From NCBI GenBank assembly GCA_036867785.1, contig CP145409.1:1178001-1242000 (forward strand): a DNA stretch of 64,000 nt, written 5' to 3'. The position numbers and the translations under genes are program-made. This document shows positions 4,099-28,389 of this stretch, piece after piece. The DNA comes from Plasmodiophora brassicae. Its lineage: Eukaryota. Numbering within the stretch: the first letter of the stretch is position 1; each line of letters begins with the position of its first letter. The notes under the pieces were generated by a model. The model was not told the DNA's origin and ran no database searches. It saw only the letters and a list, made by a program, of their open reading frames with translations.

Positions 4099-7000
4099 CG
4101 GGGGTGGCGCTGGCCGCCCCCGATCACGATCATCCAAACCAGCCAGAAAACAAGAGCCCGAGCAAGGAGGAGCCGGCCGAGAAGAAGGAAACGCGCAAGC
4201 CCGCGGACGTAAAGCGCGACAGAACGATATCATTGGCGGAGGCGCACGCGAGGTGCGGCCACCTGTCCACGATCACGATCAGAAAGGCAGTCAAGAACGG
4301 GGCAATCACCGGTCTCAACATCGACGAGGCCGACCTGGCGAGCGACGAGGTGCCCAGGTGCAAGGTGTGCATCGAGGCCAACCTCAACCGAACGGCGATC
4401 CCGCGGAGACGGACACGGACGGTGCTCTCGAAGCTGCAGATCGTCGGGGCGGACCTGCAGACGTTCGACACCAGGTCGCATGACGGAAAGACGTACATGG
4501 CGTGCTACGTTGACCACGCGACTGGTGTCGGTGCCACGGTCAACCTGGCAAATAAGGGTGACCAGGAGCAAGTCGTCATGGACGTGCTGACCCGGCTCGA
4601 GGTCATGGGCGGCACACGCGTCGACACGTTCCGCGCCGACCAGGGCGGCGAGTTCACCTCGACGCGCCTGGCGAAGCTGCTGCGCGAGCGGGGAATCGCA
4701 CAGGAGTTCAGCGACACGGACCGCCCGCACCAGAACGGTCTCGCGGAGACGTTCGGTGGCAAGATTGTCAAGATGATGCGCGCAGCTCGTGTCCAGTCAG
4801 GCGTCCCGCGCAAGTACTGGACCGAGAACGGGCGGCATCAGACGTGGGTAGCCAACCGCGTGCCGCTCCAACGACACGGCCACCGGACGACGCCAATCGA
4901 GGAACTGACGGGGGAACAAGCAGACCTGTCGAGGGCGATGCCATTCGGTTGCGAGGCGTGGGTCAGGATCCGGCGGCAAAAGAAGTGCAAGCTGGACGCC
5001 AGGGCCGAGCGCGCGGTCCACATGGGGGTGTGCATCGACAAGAAGGCGTACCGGCTGCTGCTGTGGCACAGCCGCAAGATGATCGAGTCTTCGGACGTGG
5101 TCTTCTTCCCCAACGAATTCCCGTTCAAGGATGACAGCGGCTCCCGCGGAGAGGAGACCCGCAAGCGCCAAGAGACGGCGCAAGCCCAGCTGCAAGGAGG
5201 CGGCGATGGCGGTCAAGACGATCGTCATGGGCAAGAAGACGACGGCGGTCGGGACGATCGCGTCGCACGACAAGACGACGGCGATCGAGAAGGTCGCGTC
5301 GGTCAACAACAGGGCGGCGGCCAGGATGGCCGCGCCATTCAGCGAGGCGGCGGCGGGGACGACCGTGCCAGGGAACTCGCAGGTGCCGGTGAAGACCGGC
5401 ATGACGGACGCGATGAGCAAGCAGCTCAGGGCGGCGGGGATCGAGGACCTGCTGCTCAAGGCGTCCCTGAACCGAGGCGGTCGACGCGCATCAGAGGAGC
5501 GCCCGCTCGGTTTGCCGACGTGGACTACGACGGCGAAGCGCGGCGCCAGAGGGCGGCCAGCGCCAGGGCGGCAGCAGGGGCTGCCGACAACGTCGACCAG
5601 GCGGCAGCAGCAGATGCTGTCGACCACGACAACGAGGCCAACGACGACCCGGACAACGAGGACCAGGTCAACCAGGACGAGGCGCTCGAGAACGAGGACA
5701 GCTACCTGGAGGAGGAGGACGCTGGCAACGCGTTCCTCACTGAGTACGAGGCCGAGAACGGGCCTGACCGGGACAAGTACCTGGCGGCGCAGGTCGAGGA
5801 GATGCAGTCGCTGAAGGAAGCGGGCACGTATGAGATCGTGGACCGCCCGACCGACGCTCAAGTGCTGCCAACAATGTTCGTGCACACGACGAAGCGCGAC
5901 GAGGACGGGGAGATCACGCGCCACAAGGCCCGCTTCTGCGTCAAGGGATGCTGCGACAAGTTCAAGGGCCAGAAGGAGACGTACTCGCCGACGCTCCGGT
6001 ATGCGACGTTGCGCATCATGGTGGCGCTGGCGGCCATGCTGGGCGTGGTCATCCACCAGCTGGACGTTAAGACGGCGTTCCTGAATGGAGACCTGCCGTA
6101 CCCGATCTACTGTGAACAGCCGAAGAACTTCGTGGTCGGAGGACGCGGCAAGGTGATGAAGCTCCTGAAGGCGCTGTACGGCCTGGTCGAGGCGCCGAAG
6201 CTCTGGTACGATAAGCTCGTATCAGTTCTGTTCGAAATCGGCTTCACAAGGGTGACCGGCGACCCGTGCCTGTTCGTTATGTTCACGACGAAGGACGGCC
6301 GCAGACAGATCACGATCCTCGGGGTGTTCGTGGACGACTTTATGATGTTTGGCACGGATCCCGACGTCATCGAGTACGTCAAGGCAGCGTTGGGCAAGAA
6401 GTTCAAGATGAAGGACCTCGGCATCGCGAGATGGATCCTGGGGATGCGCATCAAGCAGGAGGCAACGCGCATCACGATCGACCAACAGCAGTACGCCAAG
6501 GAGGTGGTCGCGCGGTTCCAGACCGACATCGACGAGGCAGCCGCCGGGCGCCGCTTGCGCGCGCCGGCCACGGCTCTGCCTGTCGGGCAGATTATGCCCC
6601 GGCGAACCGACGGTGTTCCGCACCAGCATGAGCGGTACCGCGAGGGCGTTGGTTGCCTGGCGCATCTGTCGATCGGCACGATGCCGACAATCACGCACGC
6701 GGTGTCGCAGCTGTCGCGTCACCTGAACAACCCGGGTCGGGAGCATTTCGAGGCGATGCTCCACGTGCTGCGATATGTCCAGAACAACACGGATGTCGGC
6801 ATCATCTACGCGAAGAGCAAGACACCGGCGACTGAATTCGACCCGATGGCACTGAACAAAGACAACGTGAAGGAGTCGGAGCCCCGGGCGGCGGTCGACT
6901 CGGACTTTGCGATGGACCCGGACACATCCAAGTCGGTCACGGGATTCATCGTCACGCTGATGGACGCAGCTGTGAGCTGGCGATCGAAGCAGCAAAGCCT

Positions 7001-21481: not shown

Positions 21482-21940
21482 CTACCTACCGCTGTGATAT
21501 CCTAACCGAATCGCAACGATCGTCATTACAGACCAACAAGACGGGCCGAATAACATTCTCCTTCGGCGCTGCGTAAGTCTAAAGGCAGGCGGACCGCCCC
21601 GATTGACGTCACAGTGACGCAGCGTTTTCAAGAACCTCGCGCCCGACAGCTTCATTACCAGCTTGCAAAACTGACTGTCGGCATTCACGTCCGTCAAGCG
21701 ACCCTGTTCGAGATGCCGCTTCATCCACTCCATCGGGTCGCTTTCCGTCACCTAATCCGAGTCCTTGCCCAACTCCCAGGTGCATACCGCCTTCAACAGA
21801 CCTGGATCGATCATGCTCCTCAGTGACCGCGGAATTTGGCCCTTGGCGCTCGGATCATCTCGGAAACGATTCCAGGCGCCTTGTTCATCTGCAGGACGAC
21901 CGTCGAGCCCTTCACGTGCCGTCCCTACTGCCAGTCGTCA
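21482..21940 (-). pseudogene. Degenerate coding relic, possibly retroelement gag-like
   Basis: SMIDPGLLKAVCTWELGKDSD*VTESDPMEWMKRHL has an in-frame TAG at about 21752-21754, with more stops upstream. Confidence 0.35.
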
Positions 21941-22348
21941 TCGTCCTCCATCAACATATCCTCAGCAGTGGTCAACATCGCGTCCTTCTGCACCTTCCCC
22001 GAAAGGAACCGTAAGAGACCTTACCCAACCGTGTGTGTCGTCCCGCGTCGTCCGTCGTATACCTACTCTCTTCCTCGGGATCTGGATTCCTCTAGCCCAA
22101 TCACAGCTATGTTCATCTTGTAGCTTTGAGCCGCCACAAGGCATACATATGGCACACAACGCTGAACCTCTGCGCGTTCCAGTATCATGTAAACGTTCGT
22201 TGCTACCACTGACATATCAGGGCTGGGACCAATATAATAGCTTTATCATTGCGGATGTATAACACCTGTGAGCCTGCATAATTCATGACCTGTTCAAGAT
22301 GTTACGTCAGCACAAAGTTCATTGACATGAGAATGCGGAATGACCAGC

Positions 22349-22426
22349 ATCGGGTCAGAAAACAGGACAGTTATCGTCAAAGAAATTCAGTTGAAAGATG
22401 GTGATATAGGAATTCATCATGCCAAT
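22349..22426 (-). ncRNA. Box C/D snoRNA, U51/SNORD51 (snR39/snR59)-like, copy 1
   Basis: On the minus strand: C box ATGATGA (22420-22414), guide ATCACCATCTTTC, D' CTGA (22390-22387), degenerate C', D CTGA (22358-22355). Confidence 0.78.
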
Positions 22427-22549
22427 GAAGACAAAACGTGACACGTCCTACATGTAATGCTGCGATGCAGGAAGCCGGAATCCGCACTACACTATGGCAT
22501 TAGTTAGAATTAGCACTACAAGGTACAGTTGAAACAATGGAAAAGGCAA

Positions 22550-22632
22550 TAAAATCAGAGACTTGAGTATAGAATAGTTGCATCACGATATCATCAGTTG
22601 AAAGATGGTGATTAGAAGAATCATCATTGGAA
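22550..22632 (-). ncRNA. Box C/D snoRNA, U51/SNORD51 (snR39/snR59)-like, copy 2
   Basis: C ATGATGA (22627-22621), AATCACCATCTTTCAA, D' CTGA (22597-22594), C' GTGATGC, D CTGA (22558-22555). The guide is antisense to the conserved LSU rRNA sequence GAAAGAUGGUGA. Confidence 0.82.
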
Positions 22633-23235
22633 GTGGATATAACTAACGGGCACTACCTGCAGACTACGGTTCAGGTGACCTCGCCAGATCGCAACTGATG
22701 TCACGGATCCACGGCGTCCGTGGCGGACTCCTCGACTGAATGGTATATATCGCAGCGCCCTAATATCTGAAAGCACTCGTTGCTTCTTAATGCTTTTTAG
22801 GTGACGTCCACAAAGTACAACCCGATCGAGTAAGAACTCCTATGACGGCTGCGCTATTGCACGAAGTTGCTGAAGATGTCCAAAGAAATCGACAACTGCC
22901 ACCTCCTTACGAGATGTCAGGTGGATCACCAACGCCTTTGGCTATTTCGAATTGGAGATGTACGGGCAACACAAGCGTCATGACCATAGTTCCCCACAAG
23001 TTCCGACAGGCATCGCTAAAATGGACGTCGTTGCACTGTTGTTGTCAAGATGGCCTAAGCAGTAGCACCTGCGAAAACAAACTGTGCCTGGGGGGCACAC
23101 CTCTCACCTCTGTTCGGAGGAAACGAACGCACCAACGTTAAGCTGCTGTTGTGATGAGTGTGGACATTTGAAAACGGCGATTCCGGGTGTACGTCATAGA
23201 CGGCGAAGTGATAACGTAAACAGACAACGTTGCCA

Positions 23236-24467
23236 TTACTTCATAATGTCGACAATACTGTCCAGCAATGCCTTCGAAGATGCGCACAGCACTCGACCAG
23301 AAGTCATATCGAACGTGCCACCGTCTTGGTCGGATATAACACCGCCGGCTTCCGTCAATACGACTTCAGCTGCAGCGAAATCCCTACCCGCACACGTGTC
23401 AGCTGTGAGAATAACTGAGCAGATAGCTGAGCAAACCAGGGCTTCGGTCCGATTTTGGACGTGTGGCCTTCGAAGTAAACGTCGGCTCGCCCACATGCCA
23501 CACTGCACATGTTCAGAGCCGCTGCACGACCAAGAATGAGAAGGATAATTCCTTTACTGCAAACGCAGATAAGCACACCTGATCCGAAAAAGCGAACGCT
23601 TTGCACGTTGTTGGTTAGAAGTTTACGTAAGCAGCCTAGCATTCGATCGATTGCTGAAAAGGCCAGTCAGTCAACTGTTTGAACGGTCCCCACGTGAACA
23701 TACTCGCAGGATCCCGCCCATAGCCGAACTCGTTGATGACAGCTGCCTTATCGAGTTTGGTGATGTTGGAAACACGGATCTGACGACCGTTCAGGAATGC
23801 CCCTTGGCCAGCCCTATAAAGCATAACGGTCAGGACAGGTAAGCTTCGCTGGAAATTTCAGGACCTTGCTGTGAACAACTCGTTGATAATTGGATTGTAC
23901 ACAATGCCGAATGCCGGCTTGCGGTTGACGTGGCAGCCAATGGATACACAGGTCCAGGGTATGCCGTGGATGAAGTTATTCGTTCCTGACACAGATATTA
24001 GAAGATGATGCCACCACGACGCTGAACATGGTGGTACCATCAATCGGATCAACGAACCACGTCATGTCATTTGACAAATCGTAACCGTTATCGGCGTGAC
24101 TTTCTTCAGCAATGATCTTCGCTGTCGGAAACGCATGTCGAATTCGCCCGACAATCAGTTCTTCACATTGCCGATCGTATACGGTCACCTTTGAAACAAG
24201 GAGTTACACATCGACATCTTCACCAAACGGTAACGACCCCAACCAGGTCAGTGGCTCCGGATTTGCTCTCAATCGACTTATCACGCTTGTGAAACGCATC
24301 CACGATGACCTGACCGGCATCCTTGGCTGCCTGAAGAGCCTGCAGCAGCGCGTTACTCGTCAGTTCCTGGACCCGTCCAGCATGTTTCTGGACCCGTCCA
24401 GCACGTTCCTGGACCCATCCAGCAGTACGCATCGTACCAAGGTGAATGCAGCGTCTTCGTCGGCCAT
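23236..24467 (-). CDS. Inositol monophosphatase, multi-exon
   Basis: KIIAEES, WFVDPIDGT/NNFIHG, GSG/AAALNMC, EAGG motifs. Confidence 0.92.
24364..24426. repeat. 21-bp tandem repeat x3 in IMPase intron 1
   Basis: TTCCTGGACCCGTCCAGCATG-like units, each with an internal CTGGA/TCCAG inverted repeat. Confidence 0.85.
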
Positions 24468-27870: not shown

Positions 27871-28389
27871 GACTGGTTTGCCGTCGGACTCCGTGGCGGA
27901 TCCTCGGACTGCGCGGGAACGTGCCGACATACTGCTGCCCTTTCGACTTTCGCTCATCATACAGGTTGGGGATTGCAGAAGCGTTATAGGTAAGTATGCC
28001 CAAATTAATGCTGACGGATATCCATCGACTACAGACTTCAGCTATCGCAGATGTGGAGGATTCGCGAAATCCGTTTCGTGATCTACTTTGTGCACATTCA
28101 CCCGATGGTTTCCCGTTGGGGGAAGACAGCAGTATCCATAGCCCCGTACGTTTTCGGCCGGCTTGACTGGGGATCCTCAACTTACATGGGTCGTTACAGC
28201 AGGTACAGTGGGGCGGCGCCTTATAGTGTCACGAGATACGACCCACGACAACGCGGCCAAATTTGGTACACAGTAACGTGGACGGGCACTTTGGCAGAGG
28301 GGCCGCGCTGACGTCCCAACTCGCGATGGAACGCCCATTTTCTTTTGGATAGTGTGAGGTCGCGGGAGTGAGTTCGTGACAACGATCCA

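Follow-up and report, generated by a model that had tools for sequence, protein, structure and literature searches.

Mammalian GAS5 and UHG are reportedly non-coding hosts of snoRNAs. The spliced RNA of hosts of this type is unstable or degraded by NMD, and vertebrate snoRNA hosts start at a 5' terminal oligopyrimidine (TOP/TCT) sequence. The hosts of U51 and of snR39/59 are said to be protein-coding. Non-coding intronic snoRNA hosts were described in clusters I-V of Neurospora crassa (PMC2780460), and such hosts were predicted for the intronic snoRNA arrays of the ciliate Oxytricha (PMC3177221). In the yeast LSU, Am807, Um898 and Gm908 are assigned to snR39/snR59, snR40 and snR60, respectively (PMC8053091), and the guidance of 25S Um898 by snR40 is given elsewhere as well (PMC4344503). 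The A807 site is conserved in plant, human and yeast, and clan CL00054 holds snR39/59, U51/U32a and snR40 (PMC3511168). Guide shuffling between snoRNAs is known in fungi (PMC2780460; PMC5824354). The optimal distance from the D box to the branch point in mammals is about 50 nt, with snoRNP assembly coupled to splicing and aided by Aquarius (PMC8162545). A review of 2024 calls protist annotations clearly incomplete (PMC11028025). The mentions of snoRNA in the available parts of two Plasmodiophora papers are confined to a reference or to a filter for reads (PMC6823432, PMC13547706), and the passages of a Bigelowiella paper concern nucleomorph RNAs (PMC6461891). We found no description of a rhizarian nuclear snoRNA host in the open literature searched.

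The locus described here lies in a stretch of 64,000 nucleotides of Plasmodiophora brassicae (the window, G000:C1:1178001-1242000), from a genome of 25.28 Mb in 20 contigs. It sits between an inositol monophosphatase gene (PF00459), upstream, and a diverged interspersed repeat, downstream. We consider it likely that the locus is a dedicated non-coding host (about 22686-22224, minus strand, roughly 460 nt, polyadenylated) whose two introns are spliced, debranched and trimmed into two guides for the equivalent of yeast A807, of which copy 1 would also serve the U898 equivalent (Table 1). It resembles the UHG/GAS5-type hosts in its short exons, the lack of a real ORF, the single C/D snoRNA per predicted intron, the polyadenylation and the presence of partly unspliced forms. 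It differs from them in being much smaller (two introns, 136 nt of exon), in belonging to Rhizaria, in its paralogous payloads and in the lack of a 5' pyrimidine tract at the observed RNA end (22686), although contigs cannot fix the cap site. The likeness is one of design, and we claim no homology of the host itself. The design is already known in animals and Neurospora and predicted in Oxytricha, and no new kind of mechanism is involved.

Table 1. Features of the snoRNA host locus (positions in the window) and of related loci elsewhere in the genome (contig coordinates).
Feature	Position	Strand	Evidence or remark
Candidate promoter element TCCGCCACGGA	22717..22727	(-)	31 nt upstream of the RNA 5' end; putative promoter role
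Exon 1 of host, about 30 nt	22657..22686	(-)	5' end from contig ends in X1, X4 and X7; contigs cannot fix the true start
Intron 1, 165 nt, predicted: GTAGTG...CTAAC...ATAG	22492..22656	(-)	Sequence; joint seen in none of the four runs
snoRNA copy 1, predicted double guide	22555..22627	(-)	Boxes, two LSU duplexes, Rfam scores below GA
Copy 1 boxes and guide	C 22627-22621; guide 22611-22600; D' 22597-22594; C' 22586-22580; D 22558-22555	(-)	Sequence
Exon 2, 40 nt	22452..22491	(-)	3' boundary from the X1 joint, 28 nt on the exon side; 5' boundary predicted
Intron 2, 162 nt: GTAGGA...CTGAC...CAG	22290..22451	(-)	In one of four runs (X1), a joint with CT..AC ends that skips 162 nt
snoRNA copy 2	22355..22420	(-)	Boxes, D'-guide duplex, Rfam scores below GA
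Copy 2 boxes and guide	C 22420-22414; guide 22404-22393; D' 22390-22387; C' 22380-22374; D 22358-22355	(-)	Sequence
13-nt inverted repeat around copy 2, possible external stem	22318..22429	(-)	Arms 22429-22417 and 22330-22318
Exon 3 to poly(A) site at about 22224	22224..22289	(-)	T24 loose end, X7
Apparent non-coding host (L171)	G000:C13:895570-896320	(-)	DNA only; three predicted introns of 204, 253 and 164 nt
Apparent host (L170)	G000:C5:467400-468100	(-)	DNA only; three predicted introns of 184, 172 and 169 nt; 27-nt middle exon
U18-like C/D snoRNA (L148, L172)	G000:C15:382146		RF00093 31 bits (GA 41); terminal stem, no obvious flanking intron

The first-pass annotation of this DNA had placed two minus-strand C-guide-D'-C'-D units in an AT-richer gap, and all of its coordinates hold. 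GC content is 0.39-0.43 in the snoRNA gap and 0.50-0.60 on the flanks. The sequence contains the proposed intron bounds with the middle exon between them, and the distance from D box to 3' splice site is 63 and 65 nt. The unusual intron size, given as about three times the local one, holds as well: the eight canonical neighbouring introns seen spliced measure 50, 51, 52, 53, 55, 57, 58 and 98 nt (median 54). Both copies carry the boxes of C/D snoRNAs, i.e., ATGATGA (C), CTGA (D'), GTGATGC or TTGACGA (C') and CTGA (D), and an antisense element of the usual 10-21 nt next to D or D' (12 bp in both, 15 bp in copy 1). The predicted mature products are snoRNAs of about 66-73 nt, one per intron. Introns 1 and 2 align end to end, and the strongest direct repeat in 21900-23300 is a 34-nt block from C to D' (79% identity, spacing 207). 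From this alignment and this repeat, the two snoRNA introns probably arose by tandem intron duplication.

The snoRNA cores fold no better than their shuffles, as expected for C/D RNAs. The arms of the inverted repeat around copy 2 are 92% complementary and overlap the first four bases of box C. The possible external stem that they would form has a fold z of -1.95, reached by 6 of 200 shuffles, and copy 1 has no such stem (z +1.06). The region of the RNA 5' end (22700-22681) is 75% complementary over 20 nt to the D' guide and box of copy 1 (22611-22592), which could reflect guide masking in the precursor, or chance.

We sought rRNA targets in one complete rDNA unit cut from contig C5 and compared duplex scores with those of 200 shuffled guides. 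Against the LSU of this genome, each D' guide gives a duplex of 12 Watson-Crick pairs at unit position 4173 (1/200 shuffles each). The second A of CCGAAAG, which corresponds to yeast Am807, is paired with guide position -5 in both copies. The U51-type layout with D'+5 on this adenosine, which the first-pass annotation had recognised, is matched by a duplex in each copy, and D'+5 on the LSU A807 equivalent is a feature of SNORD51/U51/snR39. The 12-mer target word occurs seven times in 25.3 Mb (two guides, four rDNA copies and one other) and its reversed control not once. This rarity and the shuffles put the D'-guide match above chance. Guide positions -1 and -2 (AA) face CC in the rRNA and are unpaired. 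A compensating change in the rRNA opposite AA was considered and is wrong, since the target has CC. Among 73 distinct look-alikes from 96 metagenome stretches, not all of which are real snoRNAs, position -2 is G in 55 and AA is found in 6, which makes AA a minority state, though not a unique one.

The two units had been taken to share the same guide. This holds for the D' guide; the D-side guides differ, and the second guide of copy 1 had been overlooked. The D guide of copy 1 (22574-22560) forms 15 bp (13 Watson-Crick and 2 GU) at LSU unit position 4264 (1/200 shuffles), with its position -5 on a U that lies 91 nt downstream of the A807 equivalent. Since this offset is that of yeast 807 to 898, the U is the equivalent of Um898, the LSU site that snR40 guides. 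The numbering was calibrated with the snR60/U80 homologue of contig C5 (RF00309, 43.9 bits, GA 41), which targets +101, as from yeast 807 to 908. The D' duplex and the 15-bp D duplex thus make copy 1 a predicted A807+U898 double guide. We found no precedent for this combination in the open literature searched. The best duplex of the D guide of copy 2 (11 bp with 2 GU, at unit position 4595) is reached by 38 of 200 shuffles, and we rejected it as an unproven methylation target. A sixth match to the U898 guide word, at G000:C7:46320, was rejected as a guide, since neither a D box behind it nor an Rfam hit was found.

A short CTATAC element is present near the 3' end of four metagenome homologues that have AA before D' (L030, L059, L077, L102). 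Judging from these elements, the association with the U898 rRNA segment may be older than the plasmodiophorid lineage. The word GTCC is found repeatedly within the D-side guides of L018, L021-L023, L032, L073, L091 and copy 2 (22369-22364), and could provide accessory pairing with GGGAC just 5' of the A807 site. Among homologues the motif is found in 7 of 13 that lost the pair at -2 and in 3 of 42 others (p 0.0007), in a test that leaves out 18 of the 73 entries, without a D box 20-45 nt on, and whose samples are not independent. Four of the seven are paralogues from one organism; hence, this link is a lead only.

At gathering thresholds, Rfam gave no hit in the whole 64-kb window; the families that rank first below them belong to clan CL00054. 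The best Rfam match of both copies is RF00535 (copy 1, 34.2 bits, E 0.0013; copy 2, 32.5 bits, E 0.0032; GA 49). In a run over the genome, the SNORD51 model (RF00280) retrieved only these two loci among the 57 candidates scored, with 28 bits for copy 1 and 25.7 for copy 2 (GA 50). The Rfam check suggested with the first-pass annotation is thus borne out in ranking and not in score, and neither copy reaches the gathering threshold of a family of clan CL00054. We predict that these snoRNAs function like U51/snR39, with formal membership of an Rfam family not reached.

Like SNORD51/U51 (RF00280), Drosophila snoMe28S-Am982 (RF00535) and yeast snR39/snR59 (RF01197), our snoRNAs have a D' guide antisense to GAAAGAUGGUGA and place D'+5 at the A807 equivalent. 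The yeast pair is also intron-encoded and duplicated (PMC8053091). Our snoRNAs depart from the U51/snR39 families by AA in place of G at -2/-1 and, in copy 1, by a complete second guide, directed at the U898 equivalent; their host, unlike those of U51 and snR39/59, is apparently non-coding. The D guide of copy 1 shares its Um898-site target with yeast snR40 (RF01201, CL00054), whose D' guide targets 18S Gm1271/Gm562 (PMC4344503). The D' guide of copy 1 is directed at LSU A807 rather than at SSU G1271/G562, and we therefore did not file it as snR40. A similar arrangement exists in the metagenome locus L063 (1168-1441) of an unrelated eukaryote, where two U51-like copies lie at a distance of 214 nt and each of them follows a GT donor inside an apparent intron. 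That locus is AT-rich, has GA at -2/-1, lacks the U898 guide and is known from DNA alone; its duplication is probably independent of the one described here. The copies of L063 lie directly downstream of a gene that we take to resemble ribosomal protein P2, and another C/D-like RNA is found in an upstream intron of this P2-like gene. We recognised no plasmodiophorid orthologue among the 96 metagenome stretches.

Transcription was analysed in assembled long-RNA contigs of 4 of the 24 listed runs, from four studies (X1, X2, X4 and X7). These runs are presumed RNA ('RNA?'); the spliced neighbours and the poly(A) ends in them are as expected of RNA. The 5' ends of the contigs fall at 22686 in X1 and X4 and at 22685 in X7 (three of the four runs). 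At 22224, X7 shows a non-templated T24 loose end where the genome has no A-run. The shared end and this tail delimit an independent polyadenylated unit, with a run-through contig in one of the four runs. Of the two junctions predicted earlier, that of intron 2 was found in X1 only, removing exactly 22451-22290, and that of intron 1 in none of the four runs (both among the joints listed). The 30-nt first exon is near the detection limit of contigs, and a 136-nt spliced RNA with such an exon would easily be lost from long-RNA assemblies, so that the blank for intron 1 is weak evidence. Six of the seven introns of the upstream gene are spliced in all four runs and the seventh in three (among the joints listed). 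The spliced host RNA measures 136 nt. Its first ATG opens a frame of two codons followed by a stop (AUG-UCA-UGA), and the longest ATG frame before the poly(A) end has 21 codons and no stop; the RNA thus lacks a significant ORF. In Pfam, six of nine proteins of the gap, the downstream side and the neighbours had no hit, the other three being the upstream inositol monophosphatase. The earlier proposal of a dedicated snoRNA host agrees with the contig ends, the T24 tail, the intron 2 joint and the lack of a usable ORF.

The downstream repeat occupies window positions 21647-22146 on the minus strand, with about 25 long matches at 78-80%; 85 other pieces of the genome match it at 72-86% identity. 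Its broken reading frames, which are without a Pfam hit, presumably resemble a retrotransposon gag-like protein. The X1 contig spliced at intron 2 extends into this repeat, and a lower-depth contig of X1 continues to 21678.

Unspliced contigs dominate in X2, X4 and X7, where they are the main ones across the unit. Together with the missing joint of intron 1 and the 13-bp stem flanking copy 2, this would fit snoRNAs that are real and are released mainly from an unspliced dicistronic RNA, through endonucleolytic cleavage and trimming, in the style of yeast and plant clusters, with intron 1 unused and intron 2 rarely spliced. We hold this to be unlikely: a product of 136 nt with a first exon of ~30 nt would tend to escape contigs, and the splice and branch signals are complete in both introns, whose D-to-branch spacing is that of six other snoRNA introns. 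That the D-to-branch spacing is kept argues for splicing, as there would otherwise be no reason to keep it.

The snoRNA introns might also belong to a read-through 3' UTR of the inositol monophosphatase gene rather than to a separate gene, given that one X2 contig (22241-23127) joins the unit without a break to the 3' region of that gene and that the upstream contig of X1 reaches 22760. However, the upstream gene has its own poly(A) site (T20 at 23212, X7), the interval 22710-23111 is without cover in X7 and has 2.3 in X4 against about 100 on the unit, and three runs end at 22685/22686, with the enriched promoter-like motif TCCGCCACGGA 31 nt further upstream. We accordingly give this reading very little credence. 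A very small protein-coding host, with spliced exons encoding a functional micropeptide, could be argued from a 27-codon ATG ORF that starts at 22286 and closes at 22203 in the longer 3' form (X1). Yet this ORF is preceded by AUG-UCA-UGA and is still open where the poly(A) site is reached (22224), and the longer 3' form enters the diverged interspersed repeat, which makes a coding role extremely improbable.

For the dedicated non-coding host that we favour, the following course can be proposed. Transcription would start from a short putative promoter downstream of the inositol monophosphatase gene, giving the RNA whose boundaries were observed, and both introns would be spliced, as seen for intron 2 in one run. 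Given the distance of about 50 nt from D box to branch point, snoRNP proteins would load during splicing, as in known systems, and the debranched lariat would then be trimmed to the mature snoRNA. Both snoRNAs pair with the A807 equivalent and would guide its 2'-O-methylation via D'+5; copy 1 also pairs with the U898 equivalent and would guide it via D+5. The 136-nt spliced exons, in which the first AUG is followed by one codon and a stop, would be a by-product subject to decay. Points that speak against this reading are the sparse joints of the two introns beside the well-spliced upstream gene, the unspliced main contigs, the X2 contig that reaches the upstream gene, the sub-threshold Rfam scores and the mismatches of both D' guides at -1 and -2.

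The motif TCCGCCACGGA has 178 matches in the genome and 19 for its reversed control, i.e., it is nine times commoner. The ORF context of its matches has a median of 132 codons versus 278 for the control (28 and 19 loci, p 0.004). It may be a common promoter element. The window contains two copies (22717-22727 and 27890-27900), and across the genome its copies, flanked by GGA(G/C), often form 12-nt tandem or inverted pairs. On C3, the motif is also present about 360 nt upstream of the match to fibrillarin.

We found two more apparent hosts of the same design in the genome, by a partial screen of the DNA: 112 box-pattern matches were listed and 60 stretches chosen by eye, of which 12 scored at least 10; 12 loci were read (five of them from those 12) and three were judged real. 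The host on C13 has three snoRNAs, of which two are paralogous double guides for the LSU and one is a guide for the SSU. Its LSU duplexes measure 12 and 11 bp, at unit positions 6177 and 6170, and its SSU duplex 12 bp, at position 447. We take the LSU targets to be the region of yeast G2288 and A2281. Rfam found none of these three snoRNAs. The host on C5 carries two snR60/U80 copies, which have an ATGA D box and score 43.9 and 40.1 bits with RF00309, together with one SSU guide. The joined exons of the two hosts have no ATG frame of more than 30 codons in the stretch examined. The U18-like gene on C15, with no obvious intron around it, is possibly transcribed independently, and on this account snoRNA organisation in the genome appears to be mixed.

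The end of the D box lies 47-52 nt from the branch-point A in all eight snoRNA introns of the three loci, where seven of the eight intron ends and all branch points are predicted. Alternative branch motifs occur at 44 and 54 nt in copy 1 and at 56 nt in one intron of C13. The distance from the 5' splice site to the C box is variable, from 29 to at least 83 nt. The genes for fibrillarin and Aquarius are both present in this genome.

The rDNA of this genome is subtelomeric and adjoins TTTTAGGG repeats. The rDNA of C10 (G000:C10:1271300-1291300, L011-L013) has the same layout as that of C5:1-20000, but their alignment shows 115 differing columns, which cluster in conserved blocks; the two copies on C10 are not identical either. 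The letters of the C10 rDNA look plant-like, as we presume, suggesting that host reads entered the polishing and that these are not true rDNA types.

From the three loci and their eight introns we put forward, tentatively and as a possibility that falls short of a firm proposal, that miniature non-coding hosts are a main route to C/D snoRNAs in plasmodiophorids, that they follow the mammalian rule of ~50 nt from D box to branch point, and that copy 1 is an A807+U898 double guide whose paralogue kept the A807 guide only. The spacing of 47-52 nt is a testable sign that the mammalian processing rule holds over a wide span of the eukaryote tree. Within clan CL00054, the A807+U898 double guide would be a new case of guide shuffling. 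The locus supplies snoRNA genes, targets and a host-gene design for Rhizaria. If the proposal is true, splicing-coupled and Aquarius-aided snoRNP assembly would be pan-eukaryotic and probably ancestral.
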